31,753 bases of DNA from an uncultured Conexibacteraceae bacterium (GTDB lineage Bacteria; Actinomycetota; Thermoleophilia; Solirubrobacterales; 70-9). A model generated the notes under the pieces. The model was not told where the DNA came from, ran no database searches, and worked only from the letters and a program-made list of their open reading frames with translations. Shown piece by piece: positions 243 to 30,043 of the stretch. The stretch lies in NCBI GenBank assembly GCA_964591825.1, contig CAZQET010000376.1, positions 1 through 31,753 of the forward strand. Reading direction: 5' to 3'. The translations under genes were made by a program, and so were the position numbers. Positions within the stretch are counted from its first letter, which is position 1. Each line of letters begins with the position of its first letter.

Positions 243-260
243 CTAGATGAAGTACATGCC
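243..260 (-). repeat. att-core-like direct repeat, distal copy (duplicate of the rrf2 3' end, reads GMYFI-stop)
   Basis: Reverse complement GGC ATG TAC TTC ATC TAG versus GGC ATG TAC TTC ATT TAG in rrf2; the single difference is synonymous. Confidence 0.85.
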
Positions 261-278
261 GAGTCGCGGCGCGCAATC

Positions 279-293
279 CCGCATGAGCAAGCG
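279..293. repeat. Shared end motif CCGCATGAGCAAGCG (left copy)
   Basis: 13/15 identical to CCGCTTGAACAAGCG at 928-942; lies between the core repeat and the tandem 10-mers. Confidence 0.6.
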
Positions 294-306
294 ATTTGCC
301 GTTTCC

Positions 307-339
307 GTGCGCCTGTTATGCGCCAGTTGGTGCGCCAGT
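307..339 (+). repeat. Three tandem 10-mers, arm-type-site-like (GTGCGCCTGT, ATGCGCCAGT, GTGCGCCAGT)
   Basis: Copies at 307-316, 318-327 and 330-339, spaced 11-12 bp apart. Confidence 0.75.
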
Positions 340-391
340 AAGCACCGCGCCAGCCGCGCGGGCGGCTTCTTCATCCCGCTCTCTTTGAGCT

Positions 392-607
392 TCACGCGGG
401 CGTTAGCGGTCGATCCGTCAACGTCGCCGTGGCGACGTGCAGTGGGCCGCTCTCCCCGCCCTCGTCAGCTATATAGAGGGCGACTCCCTCTTGTAGAGAT
501 TCAAAAAGCTCGTCAAGAGTGTCCCCGGAGGCGAAGCAGCCGGGCAACTCCGGAACGTCGGCCCAGTAGCTGCCGTCCTCGATATGGATACGCGCGGTTA
601 GCTCCAT
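392..607 (-). CDS. hicB: HicB-family antitoxin, short form (71 aa)
   Basis: EDGSYWADVPELPGCFASGDTLDELFESLQEGVALY is the typical HicB N-terminal partial RNase H fold signature; lies directly downstream of hicA; no C-terminal DNA-binding domain. Confidence 0.9.
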   Translation of the reverse strand: MELTARIHIEDGSYWADVPELPGCFASGDTLDELFESLQEGVALYIADEGGESGPLHVATATLTDRPLTPA

Positions 608-620
608 AGGTGAAGTTCCT

Positions 621-815
621 TCATCTTAGCTCTGCCTGTTTGAGAATCGCCTGGGCCAAGCCAGTTGGGTAGTCGCGCCCCTTGTGCTGCGGGAGCGTGA
701 TCGGACGACGGCCGGGCTTGGTCATCTTGACCTGATGCTTGCCCCCGCGAGCCTGCGTCCAGCCATTTTCCTTCAACAGCTTGATCGCCTTCTTCTGACT
801 CAGCGTGCCCTTCAT
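621..815 (-). CDS. hicA: HicA-family toxin (mRNA interferase, dsRBD fold)
   Basis: 64-aa basic protein with LLKENGW..RGGKHQVKM.KPGRRPITLPQHKGRDYPTGLAQAILKQA; the conserved His motif (GKH for GSH) is intact. Confidence 0.9.
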   Translation of the reverse strand: MKGTLSQKKAIKLLKENGWTQARGGKHQVKMTKPGRRPITLPQHKGRDYPTGLAQAILKQAELR

Positions 816-870
816 CGACCCGAGCGACGGTAGCCCTCAGTGCGGCGGAAACGTTTCGGCAGCGTGCCTC

Positions 871-891
871 ATGCGCCACTGGTGCGCCAGT
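871..891 (+). repeat. Two tandem 10-mers, arm-type-site-like (ATGCGCCACT, GTGCGCCAGT)
   Basis: Copies at 871-880 and 882-891; same motif and orientation as 307-339. Confidence 0.75.
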
Positions 892-927
892 ACGACCGGA
901 AATAACCGGACTCAGCCGGGGTGCGAA

Positions 928-943
928 CCGCTTGAACAAGCGG
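928..943. repeat. Perfect palindrome CCGCTTG-AA-CAAGCGG (right copy of the shared end motif)
   Basis: 7+2+7 palindrome between the tandem 10-mers and the core repeat; mirrors the placement of 279-293. Confidence 0.6.
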
Positions 944-968
944 AATCGCAAGGCCCATGCGGCTCGCT

Positions 969-986
969 CTAAATGAAGTACATGCC
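969..986 (-). repeat. att-core-like direct repeat, proximal copy (last five codons plus stop of rrf2)
   Basis: See 243-260. Confidence 0.85.
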
Positions 987-1367
987 CGAGCCGGCGGCCT
1001 CGGCTTCGCGGCGGGCGACCTCGGCGATCGTCGTCTGGGCGAAGACCTTGCGCAGGGCTGTGACGCCCTCGGCCCAGATGCCGCCGGCCTCGTCGGCCTC
1101 CTGCCCGACCTTGCCGTCGAGCGCCTGGACCACCTCCAGCACGGAGATCTCCTCGGCTGGGCGAGCGAGCGTGTAGCCGCCTCGCATGCCGCGGTGGCTG
1201 GTGAGCAGGCCGGCGCGGCGCAGCGTCGAGAAGAGCTGCTCGAGGAACTGCTCGGGGATGCCGCGACGCTCGGCCAGCTCCTTGATCGGCACCGGGCGCT
1301 CGCCCGAGCCCGCCAGCTCCGCCATCGCGACCACTGCGTAGCGCGACTTCGAGGTGATCGAGATCAC
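969..1367 (-). CDS. Rrf2-family transcriptional regulator (no Cys ligands, CymR-like)
   Basis: ITSKSRYAVVAMAELA...IPEQFLEQLFSTLRRAGLLTSHRGMRGGYTLARPAEEISVLEVVQALDG is the Rrf2 winged-HTH signature; no cysteines. Confidence 0.95.
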   Translation of the reverse strand: MISITSKSRYAVVAMAELAGSGERPVPIKELAERRGIPEQFLEQLFSTLRRAGLLTSHRGMRGGYTLARPAEEISVLEVVQALDGKVGQEADEAGGIWAEGVTALRKVFAQTTIAEVARREAEAAGSGMYFI

Positions 1368-3486: not shown

Positions 3487-3617
3487 TGAGCGAAAACTCC
3501 TTGACCGCCTCATCGGCAGCAAAGGACGCACGGTTTAGCGGAGCCATCCCCAAAATTAAGGTCGAGAATCTAGTCATTTGTCCATTTGGGTGGACCAAAA
3601 CGGTTCTCGTTGTCCCG

Positions 3618-4979
3618 TCAGGCCGTGATCCGGGCAAGCGCCGCGTCGATACGGAGCAACGACTCCTCGCGCCCGAGAGCTGCCAGGGACTCGAAGATCC
3701 CGGGCGAGACCGAGGTGCCGGTGATCGCCACCCGGATCGGCTGGTAGACGCGTCCCGGCTTGGTCCCGAGGATGTCCGGGATCGGACTCAGCGCCGCCTC
3801 GATCGCCTCGACATCGAACTCGCACGCCTGCAGCGCCTCTCGCGCCGCCTGCAGCGCCGGCTCGGCACCATCCTTCATCACCTTGGCCCACGCCTTCGGG
3901 TCCTCGACGGGCGGCTCGAAGAGGAAACGAATCAGCACCCAGACCTCCTCGAGGGTCTGGGCTTTCTCCTGGGCAATCGCGCAGGCTGCGCGCAGCCGCT
4001 CGTCGAGCTCGCGACCCAGATGATCGGCGACCGCGGCCGCGTACTCGTCCAGCGGCATCTCGCGCATGAAGCGCCCGTTCAGCCAGCGCAGCTTCTTCTC
4101 GTCGAAGATCGCCGCGGCGCGGCCGACGTCCTCGACCTCGAAGCGCCGCACCAGCTCCTCGGTCCTCATCACCGTGGTGTCGTCGTCCGTGCCCCAGCCG
4201 AGCAGGGCCAGGTAGTTGCGCACGGCGGCCGGAAGGTAGCCAGCCTCACGCAGCTCCTGCACGGATGCCGCGCCATGGCGCTTGGAGAGCTTCTTGCCGT
4301 CAGGACCGTGCAGGAGCGGCAGGTGCGCGTAGCGCGGCGGCTCGTGCCCGAGCGCAGCGAGGACGAGCAGCTGCTTGGGGGTGTTGGAGAGGTGGTCGTC
4401 GCCCCGCACCACCTCGGTGATGCCCATCTCGGCGTCGTCGACCGCGACGGCGAAGTTGTAGAGCACCGAGCCGTCGCCGCGGGCGATGACGAAGTCGTCG
4501 TAGCTGCGGTTGGGGAAGCTGACCGGCCCGCGGATCAGGTCGTGCACCACCGTCTCCCCCTCGTCGGGCACCCGCAGGCGCACCGCCGCACCCGGCGCGT
4601 CGGTCGGCTCGCCGCGATATCCCCGATCCGCCCCGTGCTCGGCCTTCCAGGCCTCGACGTCCCTGGCGGTGGCCGCGTCGGGGTATGCCGCCCCCGATTC
4701 GAGCAGCTCCTGCAGAGCCTCCGCATGTCGCTCGGCCCGCCCGGCCTGCGAGACCGGGCCCTCGTCCCAGTCCAGCTCCAGCCACTCCATCGCGTCGATG
4801 ATCTGCGCCACGTTCTCCTCGGTCGAGCGCTCGCGATCGGTGTCCTCGATCCGCAGCACCAGCTCCCCTCCGCCGTGACGAGCGGCAAGCCAGTTGTAGA
4901 GCGCGGTCCGCGCACCACCGATATGCAGGGCGCCGGTGGGCGACGGAGCGAATCTGAGGCGGAGCGAGGAGTCAGACAC
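3618..4979 (-). CDS. gltX: Glutamate--tRNA ligase
   Basis: RFAPSPTGALHIGGARTALYNWL, LRIEDTDRERS and KLSKR class I motifs. Start estimated at GTG 4979; alternatives at 4997 and 5006. Confidence 0.95.
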   Translation of the reverse strand: MSDSSLRLRFAPSPTGALHIGGARTALYNWLAARHGGGELVLRIEDTDRERSTEENVAQIIDAMEWLELDWDEGPVSQAGRAERHAEALQELLESGAAYPDAATARDVEAWKAEHGADRGYRGEPTDAPGAAVRLRVPDEGETVVHDLIRGPVSFPNRSYDDFVIARGDGSVLYNFAVAVDDAEMGITEVVRGDDHLSNTPKQLLVLAALGHEPPRYAHLPLLHGPDGKKLSKRHGAASVQELREAGYLPAAVRNYLALLGWGTDDDTTVMRTEELVRRFEVEDVGRAAAIFDEKKLRWLNGRFMREMPLDEYAAAVADHLGRELDERLRAACAIAQEKAQTLEEVWVLIRFLFEPPVEDPKAWAKVMKDGAEPALQAAREALQACEFDVEAIEAALSPIPDILGTKPGRVYQPIRVAITGTSVSPGIFESLAALGREESLLRIDAALARITA

Positions 4980-5020
4980 GGGCGCGCATGTTTCCACAGC
5001 GACCATAGGATGCGTGACCG

Positions 5021-5884
5021 ATGCTGATCGGTGCCCATGTCTCAACGGCCGGCGGGCTCAACAAGGCGATCGAGCGGGGAACCGAGCGCGGTTGCGAATC
5101 GATTCAGATCTTCAATCAGAGCCCGCGCATGTGGCGCCCGACCAAATACGGGCCGGATGACTTCACCGCCTTCAAAGAGGCCATGGCCGACTCACCAGTC
5201 GAAGCGGTGGTGATCCACGCCGTCTACCTGATCAACTGCGCGACCAAAGACGGCGAGCTGCGCAAGAAGTCGCTCGCGTCTCTCACCCACGCCCTGCGAA
5301 TCGGCGACCAGATAGGCGCCGCGGGCGTGGTCCTCCATCCCGGCGCTCAGAAGGGCGAGGCGCTCAGCCCGTCGATGAAACGCGCCGCGAAGGTGATCGC
5401 CGCGGCGCTCAAGGACTCCGACAGCTGCCCGCTCCTGCTGGAGCAGACCGCCGGCCACAAAGGGCTGCTCGGCCGCGACTTCGACCAGACCGCCGAGCTG
5501 ATCGACCTCGCCGGCGGCGGCAAGCGCCTCGGTCTCTGCCTCGACTCCTGCCATCTCTTCGTGCAGGGCTTCGACGTCACCGACGAGGCCCATCTGGCCG
5601 CGATCGTCGACGAAGCCGACGCCAAGGTCGGCCTCGAGCGCCTCCGCTGCCTCCACGTCAACGACGCCGCAGCCCCGCTCGGCTCCTGCCGCGACCGCCA
5701 CGCCAACATCGGCACGGGCGAGATGGGCAAGCGCGGCCTGGAGGCCTTCCTCTCCGAGCCCCGCTTCGAGGGCCTGCCGGCAACGCTTGAGACCCCAGGG
5801 CCCGTCAAGAAAGGTCCCGACCGCAGCGAAGTGCTGGCAGCCAAGCGGCTCCGAAAAGCAGGCTTGAAACGGCGCCAGCGTTAG
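5021..5884 (+). CDS. nfo: Deoxyribonuclease IV (AP endonuclease family 2)
   Basis: IGAHVSTAGG, HAVYLINCA, VVLHPG, LLLEQTAG, CLDSCH, LHVND, DRHANIG and LETP metal-binding motifs; TAGGAT -10-like hexamer 9 nt upstream. Confidence 0.95.
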   Translation: MLIGAHVSTAGGLNKAIERGTERGCESIQIFNQSPRMWRPTKYGPDDFTAFKEAMADSPVEAVVIHAVYLINCATKDGELRKKSLASLTHALRIGDQIGAAGVVLHPGAQKGEALSPSMKRAAKVIAAALKDSDSCPLLLEQTAGHKGLLGRDFDQTAELIDLAGGGKRLGLCLDSCHLFVQGFDVTDEAHLAAIVDEADAKVGLERLRCLHVNDAAAPLGSCRDRHANIGTGEMGKRGLEAFLSEPRFEGLPATLETPGPVKKGPDRSEVLAAKRLRKAGLKRRQR

Positions 5885-5903
5885 CATCGATTCAACCCGT
5901 GCT

Positions 5904-5932
5904 GTATTGACCATCTATGCCATGGTCAATAC
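5904..5932. terminator. Hairpin between convergent nfo and acyl-CoA dehydrogenase (possible bidirectional terminator)
   Basis: GTATTGACCAT-7 nt-ATGGTCAATAC, perfect 11-bp stem; no clear U-tract. Confidence 0.55.
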
Positions 5933-5956
5933 GGAAACCGTTGGCAGGTATCGCGG

Positions 5957-7252
5957 CTACTTGACGTGCATGCCTGAGATCGCGCGGCTGATCACCAGGC
6001 GCTGGATCTCGGAGGTGCCCTCGAAGATCGTGTAGATCTTGGCGTCGCGGTGCATGCGCTCGACCGGGAACTCGCGGGTGTAGCCGTTGCCGCCGAGGAT
6101 CTGGATCGCGCGCTCGGTCGACCAGACGGCGACCTCGCCGGCCTTGAGCTTCGACATCGAGCCCTCGGCGTTTTCGAACTTGTGGCCGTTGCGGCCCATC
6201 CAGGCGGCGCGCCAGACGAGCAGGCGAGCGGCGTCGATCTCGAGCTTCATATCGGCGAGGGTGAAGGCAATCGCCTGATTTTCGACGATCGGCCGGCCGA
6301 ACTGGGAGCGCTCTTTGGCGTACTCGAGCGCGTACTCGTAGGCGGCGCGAGCAATGCCGACCGCCTGAGCGCCGACCGTGGGGCGACTGGCCTCGAAAGT
6401 CTGCATCGCCGCCTGGGACTTGCCCTTCTTGCCTTCGCGCACCCGGGCGAGGCGCTCGTTGAGCTTCTCCTTGCCGCCGAGCAGACAGGAGCCGGGAACG
6501 CGACAGTCATCCAGGTGGACGTCGGCGGTGTGCGAGGCGCGCAGGCCGTGCTTCTTCACCTTGGCGCCCTGCTCGCAGCCCTTGGTTCCGGGCGGGATGA
6601 CGAAGGCAACGTGGCCGCGCGAGCCAAGCTCACGGTCAACGGAGGCGATGACCACGTGGACGTCGGCGATGCCGCCGTTGGTGGCCCAGGCCTTCTGGCC
6701 GTTCAGCACCCACTCGTCGGTGGCCTCGTCGTACTTGGCGGTGGTGCGAATCGCCGAGACGTCGGAGCCGGCGTCGGGCTCTGAGGAGCAGAAGGCGGCG
6801 ACCTTGGGGTCCTCGGCGCTGCCGAAGCACTGCGGGATCCACTCGCCGATCTGTTCGCCGGTGCCCTGGCCGAAGATCGCGGCCACCGCGAGCGAGGTTC
6901 CCATGATCGCCATGCCGATGCCGGCGTCACCCCAGAAAAGCTCCTCGTTGGCGATCGGCAGGGTCAGGCCGGTCGGATCGGCGAAGAACTGGCCCAACGC
7001 TTCGAAGCTGTAGAGGCCGATCTTTGCCGCCTCCTGAATTACCGGCCAGGGTGTCTCCTCGCGCTCATCCCATTCCGCCGCAGCAGGCCGGACGACGCCC
7101 TCGGCGAAGCCGTGCACCCACTCGCGAATGTCCTTCTGATCCTGGTTCAGCTCGAGCGTGAAGACGGGGCCCTCGGGGGTCCCGTCGCCGCCCGCGACCT
7201 CCTCCACGATGCTCTCCTTCGCTGCGTCTGCCACTGCCGCTGTATCGCTCAT
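5957..7252 (-). CDS. Acyl-CoA dehydrogenase
   Basis: AAFCSSEPDAGSD, WVLNGQKAWATNGG, GGNGYTREFPVERMHRDAKIYTIFEGTSEIQRLVI motifs. Confidence 0.95.
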   Translation of the reverse strand: MSDTAAVADAAKESIVEEVAGGDGTPEGPVFTLELNQDQKDIREWVHGFAEGVVRPAAAEWDEREETPWPVIQEAAKIGLYSFEALGQFFADPTGLTLPIANEELFWGDAGIGMAIMGTSLAVAAIFGQGTGEQIGEWIPQCFGSAEDPKVAAFCSSEPDAGSDVSAIRTTAKYDEATDEWVLNGQKAWATNGGIADVHVVIASVDRELGSRGHVAFVIPPGTKGCEQGAKVKKHGLRASHTADVHLDDCRVPGSCLLGGKEKLNERLARVREGKKGKSQAAMQTFEASRPTVGAQAVGIARAAYEYALEYAKERSQFGRPIVENQAIAFTLADMKLEIDAARLLVWRAAWMGRNGHKFENAEGSMSKLKAGEVAVWSTERAIQILGGNGYTREFPVERMHRDAKIYTIFEGTSEIQRLVISRAISGMHVK

Positions 7253-7291
7253 GGCGCGGCATCGTACGGCATAGATCGGTACCCGGATTCG

Positions 7292-7342
7292 CGAACTGCA
7301 TCAAATTCTGGCTCTAACCGGTAGAGAATTTGATGCAGTTCG
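7292..7342. repeat. AT-rich inverted repeat (18-bp perfect stem)
   Basis: CGAACTGCATCAAATTCT (7292-7309) and AGAATTTGATGCAGTTCG (7325-7342), 15-nt loop. Confidence 0.85.
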
Positions 7343-7352
7343 GGGGGCGTGC

Positions 7353-7727
7353 TCAGACGTCGCGCAGGTCGAAGGCGCGGATGCCCTCGGGGCCGCTGTC
7401 GGCGCAGTCGAAGAAGCGGCGGTTTACGCAAGCGTAGGACTCGCCTTCGCCCTCGTAGGCGCGCTCGACCGAGAACTGACATTGGGGCAGCGACTCACCG
7501 GTCATCTTGACGCCGCCGAAGCCTCCCGGTTGCAGGACCGCGTCGAGCTCGACCTTAGCTGAGAAGACATCCTGCATGCAGCCCACGTACTGATTGCCGG
7601 TCAGCATGTCGACGAAGCTGTAGAGGTAGCGGCAGCGCATTTCCACGCAGCCCCGCGGCTCGACCATCTTGTCGCAGAAGGAGCGGCACTGACGGCACTC
7701 ACCGGCCTTGGTGCGCGTTGCTGGCAT
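7353..7727 (-). CDS. Cys-rich hypothetical protein (124 aa)
   Basis: Gene-like codon usage; TAGACT hexamer 6 nt before the ATG; nine Cys, including CRQCRSFC. Confidence 0.8.
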   Translation of the reverse strand: MPATRTKAGECRQCRSFCDKMVEPRGCVEMRCRYLYSFVDMLTGNQYVGCMQDVFSAKVELDAVLQPGGFGGVKMTGESLPQCQFSVERAYEGEGESYACVNRRFFDCADSGPEGIRAFDLRDV

Positions 7728-7745
7728 AAAGGAAGTCTACGGACC

Positions 7746-7848
7746 CCTGACCGCGAAAACCAAGCAGTTCGGAGGACATAGGGAGTGTGGCGTGCTTCGC
7801 ACGTGAGCGACCGAGGACTCCGAAATGCGCCAGTTTGCAGCGGTCAGG
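7746..7848. repeat. Nested imperfect inverted repeat overlapping the dnaE stop codon
   Basis: Outer CCTGACCGC/GCGGTCAGG (9 bp), middle GCAGTTCGGAG/CTCCGAAATGC (10/11), inner CGTGC-TTC-GCACG. Confidence 0.6.
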
Positions 7849-10800
7849 CAGCGATCGCGGCGGCGCTGCCGAGAACGTGATCGAGCTCGCTGCGCAGGTG
7901 GGCGGAGGGTCGCACGCGATAGGCCTCACCGAGCTGCAGGCGCCTTGGCTCGGGGCCGCCGTTGCGAATCGCCAGGTGCACCTCGGACTCCCCGCGGTGA
8001 TGCTCGAGCACGGCTTTGAGCTCCTCGATCAGGCCCTCGGACAGCATCGCGGCGTCGATCTCGACCTCGAAGGGACCGCGCGCGGCGCTCGCCACCGAGG
8101 GCGCTGCGGCGATCTCCTCGGCGTCGGGTTCGAAGCGCTCGGCCTCCTGTACGACCAGCTTCGTCTCACCCCGCTCCTTATGGTCGAGACGACCGCGGAC
8201 GAGGACGATCGCGTCGGGCTCGATCACCGACGCGCTCTCGGCCTGGTCGGCCTTGAAGACCAGCATCTCGACCTGACCCTCGACGTCGTCGAGAGTGGCG
8301 AACATCATCTGGTTGCCGCTCTTGGTGCGGATCTTCTTGCACTCGGTGACGATCCCGCCCACCGTCACCCAGGAACCATCCTGCTTCCTCGCCAGGTCGG
8401 CGAGGCTGCAGTCGACCCGCGCTCGCAGCGCGCCCCGCACCGCCGTCAACGGGTGCTCGGAGAGGTAGGTCCCCAGCGTCTCCTTCTCCATCGCCAGCAG
8501 CTCGGCCCGCTCGAACTCGACCGCCGAGATCGGCGGGCGGTGCTGGGCCTGACCCCCACCCTGGCCGCCGCCCGGCTCGTCGCCGAAGTCGAAGATCGAT
8601 CCCTGCCCCATCTGCGCATCCTCCTGCGCCTTCTGGCCCGCCGACTGGGCCGCGGGCAGCGCTTCCAGCATTCCCTTGCGCGTCGCCTCGGTCGAGTCGA
8701 GGGCACCGCATTTGATCAGGCATTCGATCGCGCGCTTGTTGACCGCGCGCGAGTCGACCCGCTCGCAGAAGTCCCAGATCGAGGCGATCGAGTTGTCCTC
8801 GCGCGCACGCAGGATCGCCTCCACGGCCTGATGGCCGACGTTCTTGACCGCGTCGAGGCCGAAGCGGATCGCGTTCTCGGAGACGACGAAGCTGTGGTCG
8901 GAGGAGTTGACGTCGGGCGGCAGCACCTCGATGCCCATCTCCTCGCAGCGATTGACAAAGAAGGGCACCTTGTCCTTGGTGTTCATCACCGAGGAGATCA
9001 CCGCCGCCATGTACTCCGCCGGATAGTTGGCCTTCAGGTAGGCGGTGCGATAGGAGATCAGCGCGTAGCAGGCGGCGTGGGACTTGTTGAAGGAGTAGTC
9101 GGCCGCCGCTTCGTTCAGCTTCCAGAGGTCGGCGGCGACGTTCGAGGCCGTCCCCGACTCCTTCAGGCCGGCGATGAATTTGTCCTTCATCGTCGCCATT
9201 AGGTCGCGCTTCTTCTTGCCGACGGCCTTGCGCAGGTCGTCCGCCTCGGCCCCCGAGAAGCCGGCCATCTCGCGGGCGATGGCCATCAACTGCTCCTGAT
9301 AGATGACGCAGCCGTAGGTCTCCTCGGTGATCGCCCGCATGCGCTCGTCGGGGTAGGTGACCGTCTCGGGGTTGCGCTTGCCCTTGGCGTAGGTGGGGAT
9401 GTAGGCCATCGCACCGGGCCGGTAGAGGGCGCCGAGGGCGACCAGGTCAGCGAACTCGGTCGGGCCGACCTTGCGCAGCGCCTCGCGCATGCCCTCGGAC
9501 TCGAACTGGAAGACGCCGGTCGAGTCGCCGGCGGCGAGCATCGCGTAGGTCTTCGAGTCGTCGAGCGGGATCTCCTCGATGTCGATCTCCTCACCGCGCG
9601 AGCGCTGGATGATGTCGATCGCGTCCTCGATCACGTCGAGGTTGCGCAAGCCAAGGAAGTCCATCTTCAGCAGGCCGATCTCCTCAATCGGGACCATCGA
9701 GTACTGGGTCACGATCTTGTACTGGCGCTCGCCCTTGGCGGAGCCGCTGGCGCCGCCGTTGCCGTTCGCTGCCAGGGAGCCGCGGTCCTCGGCCAGCTGC
9801 AGCGGCACGATCTCGCGCAGCGGGCGGTCGGCGATCACCACCGCGGCGGCGTGGATCGAGTTGTTGCGGACGATCCCCTCGAGGCCCTGGGCGACGTCGA
9901 CGATCTTCTTCGCGTCGGGCTCGGCGTCGTAGGTCTTGCGCAGCTCCTGGCCCGGCTGCAGGCATTCCTCGAAGGAGGGGCTGCGGCCCATGATCGGCTC
10001 GGGGATCAGCTTCGCGATCCGGTCGCCGGTCGCGTAGTCGTAGCCGAGGACGCGCGCCGCGTCCCGCGTCGCGGCCCGCGGCGCCATCTTGCCGAAGGTG
10101 ATGATCTGGGCGACGGACTCGCGACCGTATTTGTCGGCGACGTAGCGAATCATCCGCTCGCGCCCGCGGACCGAGAAGTCGATGTCGATGTCGGGCATCG
10201 ATTTGCGTCCCGGGTTGAGGAAGCGCTCGAAGAGCAGGTCGTTGGCGAGTGGATCAAGGTCGGTGATGTTGAGCGCGTAGGAGACGATCGAGCCCGCCGC
10301 CGATCCACGCCCTGGCCCCACCGCGATGCCGTTCTCCTTGGCGTAGCGGACGAAGTCCCAGACGATCAGGAAGTAGGAGGAGAAGCCCATGTCCTCGATC
10401 ACCCCGAGCTCGAACTCGAGCCGCTCGCGCGCCGCGGCTGGAATCGGGTCTCCGTAGCGGGCCCGCATCCCCTCGTCGGCGACGCGGCGCAGCATCGCCT
10501 CGGGCTCCTCGCCGTCGGGCGTCGGGTAGCGCGGCAGCAGCAGCTTGCCGAGCTCGATCTCGACGTTGCAGCGCTCGGCGATCTCCAGCGTGGTCGGCAC
10601 CGCCTCCGGCCACTCGGCGAAGGAAGACGCCATTTCCTCGGAGTCCTTGAGGTAGAACTCGTTGGTGTCGAAGCTCATCTTCGGCATCTGCAGCGTCGAC
10701 TTCGTCTGCACGCAGAGCAGCGCCGCGTGGTTGTCGAAGTCCTCGCGCCGCAGGTAGTGGACGTCGGCTGTGCCGACCAGCGGCCGACCCAGCTCGCGGG

Positions 10801-11386
10801 CGAAGCGGACGATCCCCTCGTTGGCCTTGTCCTGCTCGGCGATGCCGTTCTTCTGCACCTCGAAGTAGACCTGCTCGGGCCCAAAGGCCTGGATCAGGTC
10901 GTCGAGGTGGGCGCGGGCGTCATCGTCGCGCTCTTCGATCAGGCGCCGGCAGAAACGCGACTGCAGGCAACCGGTGAGGACGATCACGCCCTCGGCGTGG
11001 GCGGCGAGCGTCTCCATGTCGACGTTGGCCTTGCCCCGGTGGAAGCCCTCGAGGAAGCCGGCCGAGGTGAGCTTGACCAGATTGGCGAAGCCGGTGTCGT
11101 TCTCGGCCAGCAGGGTGAGGTGGTTGCGCTCGTATTTGGGCTTCTCCTTGACCCCCTGAACGTCGTCGACGAAGTAGGCCTCAAAGCCTGCGATCGGCTT
11201 GATTCCGTGCTTCTCGCAGGCCTTGTAGAGGTCCACCGCGCCGTTCATCACGCCGTGGTCGGTGAGCCCGAGAGCCGGCTGGCCCATCTCCGCAGCCCGC
11301 GCCGCCATCGCCTCGATCTTGCAATGGCCGTCGAGCAGCGAGTACTCGCTGTGGGCGTGCAGGTGGACGGCGGGCGAGCTGCTCAC
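7844..11386 (-). CDS. dnaE: DNA polymerase III alpha subunit
   Basis: PHP motif VHLHAHSEYSLLDG, GPGRGSAAGS, catalytic SMPDIDIDF, YSFNKSHAACY and a C-terminal OB fold. No intein-length insertion. Start set at GTG 11386; the track gives TTG 11392. Confidence 0.97.
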   Translation of the reverse strand: MSSSPAVHLHAHSEYSLLDGHCKIEAMAARAAEMGQPALGLTDHGVMNGAVDLYKACEKHGIKPIAGFEAYFVDDVQGVKEKPKYERNHLTLLAENDTGFANLVKLTSAGFLEGFHRGKANVDMETLAAHAEGVIVLTGCLQSRFCRRLIEERDDDARAHLDDLIQAFGPEQVYFEVQKNGIAEQDKANEGIVRFARELGRPLVGTADVHYLRREDFDNHAALLCVQTKSTLQMPKMSFDTNEFYLKDSEEMASSFAEWPEAVPTTLEIAERCNVEIELGKLLLPRYPTPDGEEPEAMLRRVADEGMRARYGDPIPAAARERLEFELGVIEDMGFSSYFLIVWDFVRYAKENGIAVGPGRGSAAGSIVSYALNITDLDPLANDLLFERFLNPGRKSMPDIDIDFSVRGRERMIRYVADKYGRESVAQIITFGKMAPRAATRDAARVLGYDYATGDRIAKLIPEPIMGRSPSFEECLQPGQELRKTYDAEPDAKKIVDVAQGLEGIVRNNSIHAAAVVIADRPLREIVPLQLAEDRGSLAANGNGGASGSAKGERQYKIVTQYSMVPIEEIGLLKMDFLGLRNLDVIEDAIDIIQRSRGEEIDIEEIPLDDSKTYAMLAAGDSTGVFQFESEGMREALRKVGPTEFADLVALGALYRPGAMAYIPTYAKGKRNPETVTYPDERMRAITEETYGCVIYQEQLMAIAREMAGFSGAEADDLRKAVGKKKRDLMATMKDKFIAGLKESGTASNVAADLWKLNEAAADYSFNKSHAACYALISYRTAYLKANYPAEYMAAVISSVMNTKDKVPFFVNRCEEMGIEVLPPDVNSSDHSFVVSENAIRFGLDAVKNVGHQAVEAILRAREDNSIASIWDFCERVDSRAVNKRAIECLIKCGALDSTEATRKGMLEALPAAQSAGQKAQEDAQMGQGSIFDFGDEPGGGQGGGQAQHRPPISAVEFERAELLAMEKETLGTYLSEHPLTAVRGALRARVDCSLADLARKQDGSWVTVGGIVTECKKIRTKSGNQMMFATLDDVEGQVEMLVFKADQAESASVIEPDAIVLVRGRLDHKERGETKLVVQEAERFEPDAEEIAAAPSVASAARGPFEVEIDAAMLSEGLIEELKAVLEHHRGESEVHLAIRNGGPEPRRLQLGEAYRVRPSAHLRSELDHVLGSAAAIAA

Positions 11387-11492
11387 AGGCAAGCGATCAT
11401 GCCAAGCGAGTCAGATGGCACGAGTCGATTTCGTAACACTTACGCGCTAGTTCCGAGGTATTCGAGAGCGGCGATCTGGGCAGGGGTTCCGC

Positions 11493-12509
11493 TCAACCGC
11501 AGACCCAGGCACTTGGCCCGGAATCCGCCCAGATTTCGGCGGCGATGCGGTCCTGTTCGGGCTTCGGAGCGTTCTGGGGCTCTCCCTTGCCACCGTAGAG
11601 CCTCCAGGTGGAGGGGAGGATCTGGTACGCGCCACCGGCTCCGGAAGAGGAATTGACGGCACCGTAGTTGCCCCCCGACTCGCACATCACGATGTAGGTG
11701 GGAATCGAGTAAGGGCCGCCCAGCCAGCGTTCGACTTCGCCTTCGGCTTCGGCTCGGCTGGCCGCTTCAGCCGTCTCGACGTCCTCGACCCACTGGCCTA
11801 TCTTCGACTTCAGCGTCGCCAGGGCCGCCGAGCGAGTCGCGGCGACGGATTCGAGGTGCGCCGTGGCCGCTTCGGCGGCGGCGCGCACGGAGGAGATTTC
11901 CCCCCTGGCCGCGGCCAGGCGCTCGTCGTAGGCGTCGGCACGGGCCTTGAGCGTGGCCACGCGCCGCAGCGCCCGCGTCACCGAGCGGCGCACCTGCGCC
12001 ACCCGCTCGGCGAGGTCGGCGTCGGACTGCTGGATCCGGTCGAGGTATTCGGTGCGCGTGGCCAGTTCGTCGATGCTGCCCGAGGCGAGGATGACGCTCG
12101 CGGTGCTGGGCGAGCCGCTCTCATAGATCGCGACCAGGCGCTCGGCCAGCGCCGCCCGCGCCCGCCGCAGCCGCGCCTTGGCGACCACCAACTGCTTGCG
12201 TGTCCTGCGAACTTCGGCGGCCAGCCGCGCCGCCTTTTCCTCGCCGCGCTCGAGCAGGGCACTGAGCTTGCGCTCACGCGCCGCCGCGGCCTTCGCTTCC
12301 CCTTCAGCCGTGGCGATTTCCTGCTGAGCGGACTGCAGGCGACTGGCCAGTGAGCTCGCTTCGTCCCGTCCCGTGGCGACCTTCTGCCGCAACGCGGAGA
12401 TGCTGGCGCCACCGGCTGGCGCTGCGAGCGCTGCGGTGACAATCAGCAGGCAGAGGGCCGCAGCGAGAATCCCGCGGCTTGCGGCGGTTTTCGCGAGCGT
12501 TCGCGCCAC
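11493..12509 (-). CDS. Secreted coiled-coil protein with C-terminal Rpf-like lytic transglycosylase domain
   Basis: Signal-like GILAAALCLLIVTAALAAPAGG, long heptad region including VILASGSIDELATRTEYLDRI, and C-terminal IVMCESGGNY...AGGAYQILPSTWRLYGG..EQDRIAAEIWADSGPSAW. Start re-called at GTG 12509. Confidence 0.88.
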   Translation of the reverse strand: MARTLAKTAASRGILAAALCLLIVTAALAAPAGGASISALRQKVATGRDEASSLASRLQSAQQEIATAEGEAKAAAARERKLSALLERGEEKAARLAAEVRRTRKQLVVAKARLRRARAALAERLVAIYESGSPSTASVILASGSIDELATRTEYLDRIQQSDADLAERVAQVRRSVTRALRRVATLKARADAYDERLAAARGEISSVRAAAEAATAHLESVAATRSAALATLKSKIGQWVEDVETAEAASRAEAEGEVERWLGGPYSIPTYIVMCESGGNYGAVNSSSGAGGAYQILPSTWRLYGGKGEPQNAPKPEQDRIAAEIWADSGPSAWVCG

Positions 12510-26083: not shown

Positions 26084-27994
26084 TCAGCTCGGCTCGCTCT
26101 CAGCCGCAACGCGGGCGGCGAAATCGGCGACCGACATCGCCCCCAGCTCCCCGTCCACATGCGAGCGCACAGAGACGGCTCCCTCATCCCGCTCGCGGTC
26201 GCCGACGACCAGCATGTAGGGGTAGCGGCCGAGCTCGGCGTCGCGGATCTTCTTGCCGACCGAGCCCGAGCGGGCGTCACGCTCGACCCGCACTCTCGAC
26301 TCGCGCAGCTCCGCGGCAACCCGCGCCGCGTACTCGTTGTGGGAGTCGGAGACGGGCAGGACGATCGCCTGGACGGGCGCCAACCACACCGGGAAGCGAC
26401 CGGCGTAGTGCTCGATCAGGATGCCGGCGAAACGCTCCATCGAGCCGAGCAGGGCGCGGTGGATCATCACCGGGCGGTGGGCTTGGTCGTCGGCGCCGAC
26501 GTAGGAGAGGTCGAAGCGCTCCGGCATCTGGAAGTCGAGCTGGCAGGTGCCGCACTGCCAGGAGCGGCCGAGCGCGTCGGTGACGTGGAAGTCGATCTTC
26601 GGCCCATAGAAGGCCCCGTCCCCGGGATTGAGCTCGTAGGCGCGGCCCTGGCGCTCGAGCGCCTCGGTCAACGCCGCCTCGGCCTTCTCCCACTGCTCCT
26701 CGGAGCCCATCGACTTCTCCGGCCGAGTCGAGAGCTCGACCCGCACGTCCTCGAAGCCGAAGCGCGCGTAGAGCTCGTCGATCGCCGCGCAGATGTCGGC
26801 CACCTCGTCGGCGATCTGCTCCTCGGTGCAGTAGACGTGGGCGTCGTCCTGGGTGAAGGCGCGGACGCGCAGCAGGCCGTGGAGGACGCCCTCGCGCTCG
26901 TTGCGGGAGACGCGGCCGAACTCGGCCAGGCGCAGCGGCAGCTCGCGGTAGGAATGGCGCTCGGAGTCGAAGACGAGGCAGGCGCCGGGGCAATTCATCG
27001 GCCGCAGCGCCAGGCGGCGCTCATCGGACTGCATGAAGTACATGTCGTCGCGGTAGTTGTCCCAGTGCCCAGAGCGATGCCAGAGCTCCTCGTCGAGCAC
27101 CTGCGGCGTGGCGATCTCCCTGTAGCCGCGCTTGCGCAGCTGAGCCTGGACCTCGGCCTCGATCAGGTGCAGCAGCGTCGTGCCGTTGGGCAACCAGAAG
27201 GGCATCCCGGGAGACTCCTCGCGCAGCATGAAGATGCCGAGCTGGGGCCCGAGCCGCCGGTGGTCGCGCTTCTTCGCCTCCTCGATCCGCTCCAGGTGAG
27301 CCGCCAGGTCCTTCTTCGAGAAGAAGGCGGTGCCGTAGATCCGGGTCAGCATCTGGCGCTTCTCGTCGCCGCGCCAGTAGGCGCCGGCGAGCGAGCTCAG
27401 CTTGATCGCCCTGATCCGGCCGGTCGAGGGGCCGTGCGGGCCCCGGCAGAGGTCCTCAAAGGGGCCGTTGCGGTAGAGCGAGACGGTCTCGACGCCTTCG
27501 TTCGCGATCAGGTCCTCGATCAGCTCGACCTTGTAGTCCTCGCCCTGCGCTTTGAAGATCTCGATCGCCTCGGCGACCGGGACGTCGCGCCGCTCGAAAC
27601 GCTCGTCTGCCTCGATGTGCGTCCGCATCGCCGTCTCGATCTTCTCCAGGTCGGCGTCGCTCACCTTGACGTCCTCGGGGAAGTCGAAGTCGTAATAGAA
27701 GCCGTTCTCGATCGCCGGCCCGATCGTCACCTTGGTCCCCGGATAGAGCTCCTGCACCGCCTCCGCCATCACGTGGGCGGCGTCGTGACGGATCAGGTCC
27801 AGCGCCTCGGGATCGCGGTCGGTGAGGATCGCGATCTCGGCCCCGTCGGGCAGGGCCGCGGAGAGGTCGCGCAGCTCCCCGTCGACCCCGATCGCCAGCG
27901 CCGCCTTCGCCAGCCCGGGGCCGATCGCCGCCGCCGCGTCCGCGCCGGAAGCGCCGCCGTCGAGCTCCAACGGCGTCCCGTCGGGCAACTTCAC
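26084..27994 (-). CDS. thrS: Threonine--tRNA ligase
   Basis: TGS N-terminus, IRHDAAHVMA, DLCRGPH, RDHRRLG, LRPMNCPG, GAFYGPKID, IHRALLGSMERF. Confidence 0.98.
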   Translation of the reverse strand: MKLPDGTPLELDGGASGADAAAAIGPGLAKAALAIGVDGELRDLSAALPDGAEIAILTDRDPEALDLIRHDAAHVMAEAVQELYPGTKVTIGPAIENGFYYDFDFPEDVKVSDADLEKIETAMRTHIEADERFERRDVPVAEAIEIFKAQGEDYKVELIEDLIANEGVETVSLYRNGPFEDLCRGPHGPSTGRIRAIKLSSLAGAYWRGDEKRQMLTRIYGTAFFSKKDLAAHLERIEEAKKRDHRRLGPQLGIFMLREESPGMPFWLPNGTTLLHLIEAEVQAQLRKRGYREIATPQVLDEELWHRSGHWDNYRDDMYFMQSDERRLALRPMNCPGACLVFDSERHSYRELPLRLAEFGRVSRNEREGVLHGLLRVRAFTQDDAHVYCTEEQIADEVADICAAIDELYARFGFEDVRVELSTRPEKSMGSEEQWEKAEAALTEALERQGRAYELNPGDGAFYGPKIDFHVTDALGRSWQCGTCQLDFQMPERFDLSYVGADDQAHRPVMIHRALLGSMERFAGILIEHYAGRFPVWLAPVQAIVLPVSDSHNEYAARVAAELRESRVRVERDARSGSVGKKIRDAELGRYPYMLVVGDRERDEGAVSVRSHVDGELGAMSVADFAARVAAESEPS

Positions 27995-29970: not shown

Positions 29971-30043
29971 TGGGCGCTACTGGGCTCGAACCAGTGACCT
30001 CCAGCTTGTCGAGCTGGCGCTCTCCCAACTGAGCTAAGCGCCC
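29971..30043 (-). tRNA. tRNA-Val (anticodon GAC), CCA not encoded
   Basis: GGGCGCT acceptor, TAGCTCAGTTGGGAGAGC D-arm, CCAGC-TCGACAA-GCTGG anticodon arm, GGTTCGAGCCC T-arm, AGCGCCC-A end. Confidence 0.97.

Follow-up and report, generated by a model that had tools for sequence, protein, structure and literature searches.

In the attP sites of lambda, mycobacteriophage L5, Tn916/Tn1549 and pSAM2, a core lies between two arms that carry tandem arm-type repeats unlike the core. Cis-mobilizable elements (CIMEs) are derivatives of integrative elements (ICEs or IMEs) that retain attL and attR and have lost the backbone between them, and a definition and an accretion model are available for them (PMC5704250). 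In Streptococcus thermophilus, CIMEs related to ICESt1/ICESt3 (Pavlovic et al. 2004, cited in PMC5704250) are flanked by attL and attR, located at the 3' end of a protein-coding gene and found in tandem arrays with related elements. The DNA analysed here, referred to as the window, is a 31.7-kb stretch (positions 1 to 31,753 of contig CAZQET010000376.1) from an uncultured Conexibacteraceae bacterium. Sequence comparison indicates that its positions 243-986 are very probably what remains of a site-specific integrative element of Solirubrobacterales, a decayed copy without an integrase that is equivalent to a CIME. The ends of its 726-bp hicAB insert are the attL and attR of a tyrosine-integrase element, and the copy is a relic rather than an active element.

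This kind of element is already well known, both as tyrosine-integrase elements with arm-type sites and as CIME relics, and the feature is a conventional att system. The likenesses to the S. thermophilus CIMEs extend to the att flanks, the position at a protein-coding 3' end and the tandem arrays. The window element differs in its host (Actinomycetota, Solirubrobacterales), in its target, an Rrf2/CymR-like gene upstream of cysK, and in being only 726 bp long with hicAB as sole surviving cargo. With lambda-type systems its family shares an attP of ~240 bp, an extra N-terminal domain of the integrase and a small Xis-like helix-turn-helix (HTH) gene upstream of int. Unlike those systems, it has 3+3 arm sites in a single orientation, one arm set within the C-terminal coding sequence of the integrase (giving TGAxTGA peptide repeats), and a similar 16-bp palindrome on each side of the core. 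The integrase N-domain also has an invariant H-C-C-C motif, and we know of none in the N-domains of lambda or Tn916 Int. Like the AICEs (integrative elements of actinomycetes, conjugative or mobilizable) pSAM2, SLP1 and pMEA300 (PMC2440964), the family is actinobacterial, small and of modular int-xis-replication organization, and regenerates the 3' end of its target gene. Unlike AICEs it has a protein-coding target and not a tRNA gene, loci L098, L099 and L102 showed no transfer gene of the FtsK/TraSA type, and its replication-related gene is of the Replic_Relax (PF13814) or AAA_25 type.

The comparison set consisted of about 100 related Solirubrobacterales loci (L-numbered). It included 80 species-level loci retrieved with the window Rrf2 protein at 90-96% identity, nearly all labelled as Solirubrobacterales metagenome-assembled genomes, and a metagenome scan with the arm pattern gave 14 loci, in which arm retention is a matter of ascertainment. 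Two public contigs are near-identical to the window (99.8% and 100%), both with the same insert. An exact-product look-up of the window Rrf2 protein gave no matching record, and full-text literature searches brought up no account of such elements in Solirubrobacter.

The insert lies between the two copies of an 18-bp core direct repeat, CTAGATGAAGTACATGCC at 243-260 and CTAAATGAAGTACATGCC at 969-986, which match at 17 of 18 positions and are 726 bp apart; for the core 14-mer ATGAAGTACATGCC the expected number over the window is 0.02. On the minus strand the core reads GGCATGTACTTCAT[C/T]TAG, that is, the last five Rrf2 codons (GMYFI) and a stop, and the family core is GGCATGTACTTCATC. Both junctions have the sequence ATGTACTTCATC, as do the empty Rrf2-cysK sites of 14 genomes. 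In these 14 of the 80 genomes attB is empty, and Rrf2 ends ATGTACTTCATCTGATG and runs directly into cysK, its stop overlapping the start. The site is occupied in a further 24, where Rrf2 ends TTCAT[C/T]TAG with a conserved ~115-bp arm after it, beyond which the cargo sequences are mutually unrelated. The remaining 42 lack both a full arm and an adjacent cysK; four keep partial arms, and many begin TAGATCGG, the first arm bases, which suggests that they are scars of earlier insertions. At the distal junction, the order arm repeats, palindrome, core and then TGATG-cysK is seen in L019, L052, L026, L086, L089, L094, L096, L097 and L099. Insertion is at identical nucleotide positions of the Rrf2 gene across dozens of species, and comparison of sequences shows that insertion is site-specific, at the 3' end of Rrf2, and that the element regenerates the GMYFI end with a TAG stop of its own. 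The Rrf2-cysK junction is a busy integration hotspot in Solirubrobacterales, with the arm in at least 24 of 80 genomes, many scars and some tandem arrays, and with variable cargo (toxin-antitoxin pairs, a CHAT-domain protein) between conserved arms, frequent decay and tandem accretion.

The arms of the window element are built of several layers. Units of TGCGCC[A/T]GT lie at 308-316, 319-327 and 331-339 and at 872-880 and 883-891, all on the plus strand. Their number over the whole window is unremarkable (18, with 11.2 expected), and the signal is in the tandem clusters of 11-12 bp spacing at the insert ends. Palindromes are located at 279-293 (CCGCATGAGCAAGCG) and 928-943 (CCGCTTGAACAAGCGG); with up to 3 mismatches the palindrome pattern has 4 matches in the window against 0.65 expected, a count reached in none of 100 shuffles. 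A threefold TCCGG array (0.03 expected) lacks a counterpart at the left end and is confined to the Rrf2 side across the family. All of the cores, palindromes and 10-mers listed in a preliminary description of this DNA were found where it had placed them, and they are non-random. Its picture of two mirror-image ends holds for the order of the layers and not for the orientation of the 10-mers, all five of which have the same polarity and are direct, not inverted, repeats; it had also overlooked the TCCGG array at the right end.

Arm alignments comprised 31-33 loci for the Rrf2 side and 21-23 for the integrase side. The former has 82 columns conserved at 85% or more (33 independent loci) and the latter 70 (23 loci), a recurrence that leaves no doubt that the arms are non-random. 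The repeats, the TCCGG array and the palindromes are at least 90% conserved while the intervening spacers vary, and conservation collapses past the last repeat. The conserved Rrf2-side arm consists of ATCGGGCCGCAT, TTCCGCTTGTTCAAGCGG, GTCCGGCTGAATCCGGTTATTTCCGGTC and then ACTGGCGCAC G ACTGGCGCAC C AGTGGCGCA; the distal layout is three arm repeats ACTGGCGCACCAACTGGCGCATAACTGGCGCA, the palindrome CCGCTTGCTCATGCGG, GATTGCGC.CCCCGACTC, the core GGCATGTACTTCATC and host TGATG-cysK. Intact members have a palindrome of the CCGCTTG..CAAGCGG type at each end, ~20-27 bp from the core, and tandem ACTGGCGCA arm repeats, usually 3+3. In L099 tandem ACTGGCGCA at 11-12 bp spacing is found at both ends of the element and nowhere else across 21 kb. 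The window, with 2+3, is one repeat short of this norm, as is L098, whose integrase is intact. The 2+3 likeness to lambda that had been pointed out is incidental given the 3+3 family consensus, whereas the proposal that circularization would rebuild an attP-like site is borne out, the joined ends giving ~240 bp.

The left 10-mers overlap what is left of an integrase reading frame (316-390, minus strand). In the relatives, the frame that enters the distal repeats encodes a tyrosine recombinase C-terminus, GHANISITLDRYGHLMPGSEAE...AARAAGAVLTGAPTGA and stop. A protein search returned many full-length relatives of this integrase; the 400-aa proteins (PF00589) end in LTGAPTGA and a stop, encoded by the arm repeats, and two of the three integrase-side repeats of the window encode this same end. 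An integrase of this kind ends inside the arm in L087, L089, L094, L097, L098 and L099, so the motifs do occur together with a tyrosine recombinase and their earlier assignment to the att sites of such an element stands. Among the 14 metagenome loci the ~400-aa frame is complete in L087, L089 and L094; all 400 aligned residues are covered in L097, where the upstream frame runs to the contig start, and the others have shortened frames, cut by the contig end in L086 and L092. When the window was searched by tblastn with the full-length integrase, only residues 377-400 were recovered (96% identity, 390-319, minus strand), and no other integrase was found in its 31.7 kb. A short Xer-like enzyme had been suggested by a 165-aa query, whose best 120 matches were of 289 aa or less; this was set aside when the full-length proteins were found.

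A TG[A/E]xTG[A/E] peptide repeat is present at the C-terminus in most of 26 aligned homologues (alignment A1, columns ~418-427). It arises because arm-type DNA repeats lie inside the coding sequence, and its presence in most homologues makes the repeats in the gene end a family trait. At the other end of the protein, ~95 residues precede the region matching core-binding domains, and no Pfam arm-domain model matched them. An AlphaFold model (AF2) predicts strand-strand-strand-helix for residues 3-63, with a predicted local distance difference test score (pLDDT) of ~73-85. A three-stranded sheet with a helix is the topology of the lambda and Tn916 arm-binding domains, and the solved structures closest to the whole integrase model are the Tn1549 and lambda integrases. 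The model is consistent with an arm-binding domain at the N-terminus. Residues H9, C13, C21 and C23 are invariant in this region (alignment A1, P0125 numbering), and the motif suggests a zinc-binding arm-binding domain. Recombinases with arm-binding domains are typical integrases of mobile elements (Smyshlyaev et al., PMC8138268).

The 10-mers change with the integrase. Locus L102 has an integrase of 67% identity and the same Rrf2 site, with ACTGGGGAA three to four times at the Rrf2 end and ACTGGGGA[G/A] three times at the integrase end; it lacks tandem ACTGGCGCA, and L099 shows the converse. In L101, at another attB, ACTGGCGAA is present twice. A different attB again, beside a Mg-chelatase/ComM-like gene, is used in L083 (P0073 integrase), with three repeats right after int, a fourth case of arm repeats in that position. 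The peptide changes in step, TGA giving way to TGE where ACTGGCGCA in the DNA is replaced by ACTGGGGAA or ACTGGCGAA (L102 11170-11210; L101 11170-11200), and the L102 integrase ends LTGERTGERVGDE. Since the repeats covary with integrase lineage, which is the strongest evidence, the 10-mers appear to be recognition sites that are specific to the element and most likely serve its integrase. Among the features of att sites, those seen are a linked tyrosine recombinase in the family, a shared core with an empty attB, arm repeats on both sides and covariation with the integrase lineage. The main interest of the locus is in this covariation, a natural specificity series of three arm-site variants each paired with a diverged integrase, two of them sharing one attB, and in the arm set written into the C-terminal codons of the integrase, which makes arm recognition by the putative zinc-motif N-domain testable.

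The window element is readily related to an intact one. Intact members of the family are ~7 kb long with a heterobivalent-type tyrosine integrase whose gene ends inside an att arm, and L099, on a 306-kb contig, is a complete example of 7,394 bp core to core with 3+3 arm repeats. The window aligns with it in three blocks (Table 1), separated by L099 segments of ~0.6 kb and ~6.1 kb, and so represents a deletion derivative. It retains attL and attR, as CIMEs do, and relative to L099 has lost ~6.1 kb of backbone with the Replic_Relax, Xis-like, HTH and int genes, leaving a 24-codon integrase remnant. Other variants include L098, on a 2.83-Mb chromosome, with an intact integrase and just two Rrf2-side repeats, and L094, collinear with L053 and ~7 kb long without hicAB. 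In the window arms, 4 of 82 conserved columns are changed on the Rrf2 side (0-1 in elements with an intact integrase) and 1 of 70 on the integrase side. With these changes, and with segments 85-90% identical to L099, not necessarily its direct parent, the earlier suggestion that the element is recent is doubtful. The accompanying suggestion of recombination competence fails as regards autonomy, residues 377-400 being all that is left of the integrase. The element is unable to excise alone and could move only with a cognate integrase supplied in trans, which the light erosion of the arms makes conceivable.

Upstream of int in the intact element is a 69-aa gene with matches to HTH_17 (E 2.4e-4) and to the TIGR01764 excisionase model (E 1.9e-3), both below curated cutoffs. 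Lambda and L5 excisionases bind tandem direct repeats adjoining arm sites, and by this analogy the TCCGG array, which is retained in the diverged lineage L102, is likely to be the site of an excisionase or recombination directionality factor (RDF). It is a better Xis candidate than the palindrome put forward earlier, which is possible in that role. The palindromes, which L102 has conserved (CCGCTTAGACAAGCGG) and L101 has in part, would fit a dimeric protein with an accessory or bending role; in L083 another inverted repeat occupies their position. A host Rrf2 operator was ruled out for them, as they are missing from empty sites and belong to the element. Promoter-consensus and terminator scans of 200-1000 found nothing, and a promoter or terminator role was dropped.

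A mechanism can be proposed on this basis. The attP core (~15-19 bp) would recombine with the identical last codons of the chromosomal Rrf2 gene, strand exchange taking place within ATGTACTTCAT. The integrase N-terminal domain would bind the tandem ACTGGCGCA sites on both sides of the core, so that the integrase bridges arm repeats and core in an intasome on the ~240-bp attP. Xis at the TCCGG array would direct excision, and the CCGCTTG..C.AGCGG palindromes would be bound by a dimeric factor with an accessory or bending function. Two deletions have left the window copy with both att arms, the last 24 integrase codons and hicAB, the last of these perhaps surviving the loss of the rest because it acts as an addiction module.

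Several observations weigh against the view of 243-986 as an att-flanked relic of an integrative element with integrase-bound arms. The left core of the window runs through TAG into a membrane-protein gene, not cysK, and from 28 nt past this core onwards the sequence has its homologue in L040 ~670 bp downstream of Rrf2; the left junction may have been remodelled and not be a pristine attR, or the lineage may have another downstream neighbour. No excised or circular form or joint was present in the assembled contigs of the one run, from a wetland sample, that fully contained the element. The isolated N-domain had no hit below E 0.8 in a Foldseek search of PDB and weak neighbours in BFVD (E 0.02-0.2), the best being phage integrase N-termini and a "Min27-like integrase DNA-binding domain". 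Finally, L102 differs from L099 in its replication module too, with AAA_25 in place of Replic_Relax, so that covariation alone cannot split integrase sites from replication iterons. This joint difference, and the spacing of direct repeats at about one helical turn that is typical of iterons, would suit tandem 11-bp repeats that serve another element protein (Replic_Relax, or an XRE or HTH regulator) as iterons or operators and lie near the ends by chance. We consider this improbable, since the repeat-core distances are fixed on both sides in every lineage, one repeat set always overlaps the integrase stop even where replication genes are different or deleted, and L083, at its other attB and with no Replic_Relax gene among those called in the 10 kb flanking it on each side, still has three repeats after int.

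The unit could also be a functional miniature cassette, two att arms and a toxin-antitoxin pair, selected as such and moved in trans by the integrases of related elements, whether resident or incoming. Its nearly intact arms, the 2+3 layout shared with L098, the many independent integrase-deficient derivatives that keep arms and core (L078, L085, L088, L090, L091 and L093) and the mobilization in cis and in trans that is documented for CIMEs of other bacteria (PMC5704250) all fit. We nonetheless think it unlikely: arm retention is expected in metagenome loci chosen by arm pattern, the 31.7-kb window has no cognate integrase and the sample contigs no excision product, decayed copies show all grades of erosion (L004, L019, L030), as neutral decay predicts, and identical hicA products were found at the same locus only. 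A little less likely again is an extended form in which attL-hicAB-attR is a selected minimal mobile cassette, akin to an integron cassette with a lambda-type integrase, that is shuttled in trans among Solirubrobacterales by resident elements of the same arm-site lineage, the toxin-antitoxin pair stabilizing the hotspot and the dialects ACTGGCGCA, ACTGGGGAA and ACTGGCGAA acting as incompatibility groups. The right-hand repeats are 55-75 bp upstream of the hicA start, and they and the palindrome might be read as the hicAB promoter/operator with coincidental copies at the left. This is very hard to sustain, because the same arm precedes unrelated cargo in L008, L016, L018, L031, L037, L052, L053 and L073, a 171-aa gene separates arm and hicA in L099, the window HicB has 71 aa and no DNA-binding domain, and a separate conserved palindrome, GAAACGTTTC, travels with hicA. 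The occurrence of arms in hicAB-less elements and the absence of the palindromes from empty sites likewise speak against the binding by HicB or an Rrf2 regulator that the preliminary description had named as the alternative. Least credible of all is a transposon or a miniature inverted-repeat transposable element (MITE) with the 18-bp repeat as target-site duplication. A short insert between direct repeats is what such an origin would leave, but the insert lacks terminal inverted repeats, its end motifs run in one direction, insertion in dozens of species is at constant nucleotide positions of a single gene, the repeat is common to the element-borne attP, with TAG rather than TGA as stop, and the associated enzyme is a tyrosine integrase, not a transposase.

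Table 1. Features of the window and of the intact element L099, and the three blocks in which they align.
Sequence	Feature	Position	Strand	Remark
Window	Rrf2-family (CymR-like) regulator, target gene	969-1367	-	PF02082 E 2e-29; NCBIfam rrf2_super above cutoff, CymR model below cutoff
Window	Rrf2-proximal core GGCATGTACTTCATTTAG (minus strand)	969-986	-	current Rrf2 3' end, GMYFI and stop
Window	Palindrome-core spacer	944-968	-	core-adjacent bases conserved (consensus TAGATCGGGCCGCAT), remainder variable
Window	Rrf2-side perfect palindrome CCGCTTGAACAAGCGG	928-943		conserved in 31-33 loci
Window	Three TCCGG-type repeats, 10-bp spacing (CCCGGCTGAGTCCGGTTATTTCCGG)	896-920	-	candidate excisionase (RDF) sites
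Window	Two tandem arm-type repeats, Rrf2-side end	871-891	-	minus strand ACTGGCGCAC CAGTGGCGCAT
Window	Perfect 10-bp palindrome GAAACGTTTC upstream of hicA	848-857 (within 842-863)		kept in relatives
Window	hicA toxin, 64 aa	621-815	-	PF07927 E 4e-13
Window	hicB antitoxin, 71 aa, short form without DNA-binding domain	392-607	-	PF15919, PF21748
Window	Integrase pseudogene remnant, last 24 codons (AQRERDEEAARAAGAVLTGAPTGA) and TAA stop	316-390	-	tblastn
Window	Three tandem arm-type repeats	307-339	-	minus strand ACTGGCGCAC CA ACTGGCGCAT AAC AGGCGCAC
Window	Integrase-side imperfect palindrome CCGCATGAGCAAGCGA	279-294		kept in ~20 loci; consensus CCGCTTGCTCATGCGG on Rrf2-sense strand
Window	Core-palindrome spacer, family consensus GATTGCGC.CCCCGACTC	261-278	-	conserved; integrase-side arm alignment, 21-23 loci
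Window	Distal (integrase-side) core GGCATGTACTTCATCTAG (minus strand)	243-260	-	duplicates last five Rrf2 codons and stop
L099	Rrf2 gene	3526-3882
L099	Rrf2-side core	3865
L099	Rrf2-side palindrome	3908
L099	TCCGG x3	3931
L099	Rrf2-side arm repeats	3960, 3971, 3982
L099	171-aa gene	4048-4563
L099	hicA and hicB	4630-5053
L099	Four uncharacterized genes	5207-7736
L099	Replic_Relax gene	7785-8705
L099	69-aa Xis-like gene	8702-8911
L099	Two small genes (66, 97 aa) and XRE-type HTH gene	8939-9964
L099	Integrase	10001-11203
L099	Integrase-side arm repeats	11180, 11192, 11203
L099	Integrase-side palindrome	11225
L099	Distal core, then TGATG-cysK	11259
Window	Block matching L099 3458-3979	1393-872		86% identity; Rrf2 and adjoining arm
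Window	Block matching L099 4586-5049	859-396		90% identity; hicAB region
Window	Block matching L099 11137-11274	382-245		85.5% identity; integrase 3' end, arm and core

On the minus strand of the window the Rrf2 gene is followed by the insert proper (261-968) and by the membrane-protein gene, which starts at ~107 and runs off the window edge. The wider gene order, an AP-endonuclease-like gene, GluRS, HDOD-LuxR, a LuxR response regulator and Rrf2, is the same in L098, L099 and L102. A tRNA or other RNA as target was ruled out, with no Rfam match on 1-1500 and the sole tRNA at 29971-30043. A third core-like 14-mer, ATGAAGTACATGTC at 27033-27046 (one mismatch), lies inside a 636-aa open reading frame (ORF; 26084-27994, minus strand) with no arm motifs near and was put down to chance. 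A scan for inverted repeats of the core-type kind around the crossover found nothing at threshold; CCCGA...TCGGG can be seen flanking the core by eye, and no claim is made for it. A 50-aa ORF at 243-395 on the minus strand (L001 10421-10573), whose GTG start overlaps the hicB stop, is called as a gene in a Joint Genome Institute (JGI) contig. As it runs across the arm repeats, the core and, in another frame, the integrase remnant, it is almost certainly an artefact; the identification of the element as a decayed integrative copy accounts for this spurious call as well as for the 726-bp insert.

At the empty sites of L005, L017, L042, L045, L046, L070-L072, L075 and L079 (~4396-4400) the Rrf2 stop overlaps the cysK start (ATCTGATG) and cysE is next. 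Because of this arrangement the Rrf2 regulator is probably a CymR-like cysteine regulator co-transcribed with cysK. Insertion of the element puts 0.7 to >7 kb between the two genes, and a polar effect is possible. In L098 a gene for an IS481-family transposase (11283-12236) lies directly past the distal core, between the element and cysK.

Tandem or nested arrays that combine complete with decayed elements at one site are seen in L087 (three cores, including 2831 and 4353, and a further arm at 5134-5196), L085 and L021 (from 7286 onwards), and such arrays of decayed copies fit the CIME accretion model. An arm remnant is present at 5627-5678 inside the otherwise intact element of L098. In L078 a Replic_Relax ORF (6564-8153) forms an in-frame fusion with the last integrase codons (TGAPTGA and stop), an independent deletion in which xis and int were lost and the arm was kept, paralleling that in the window.

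The hicA and hicB-like genes both score above Pfam gathering cutoffs and are adjacent, as in HicAB type II toxin-antitoxin systems, and their GC content is lower than that of the surroundings. The palindrome GAAACGTTTC, ~35-45 bp upstream of the hicA start, is also found before hicA in L019, L044, L068 and L078 and, in L021, before the second hicA; it probably belongs to the hicAB promoter/operator and not to the att site. Cargo elsewhere includes a gene for a CHAT-domain protein (L047 6184-7428) and a DUF5131 (phage Gp37/Gp68-like) gene (L053 5288-7113, L094 16-1082), the latter beside a 365-aa gene whose product we take to be a TcmP-like partner protein. The Rrf2/cysK hotspot may thus collect defence-like modules.

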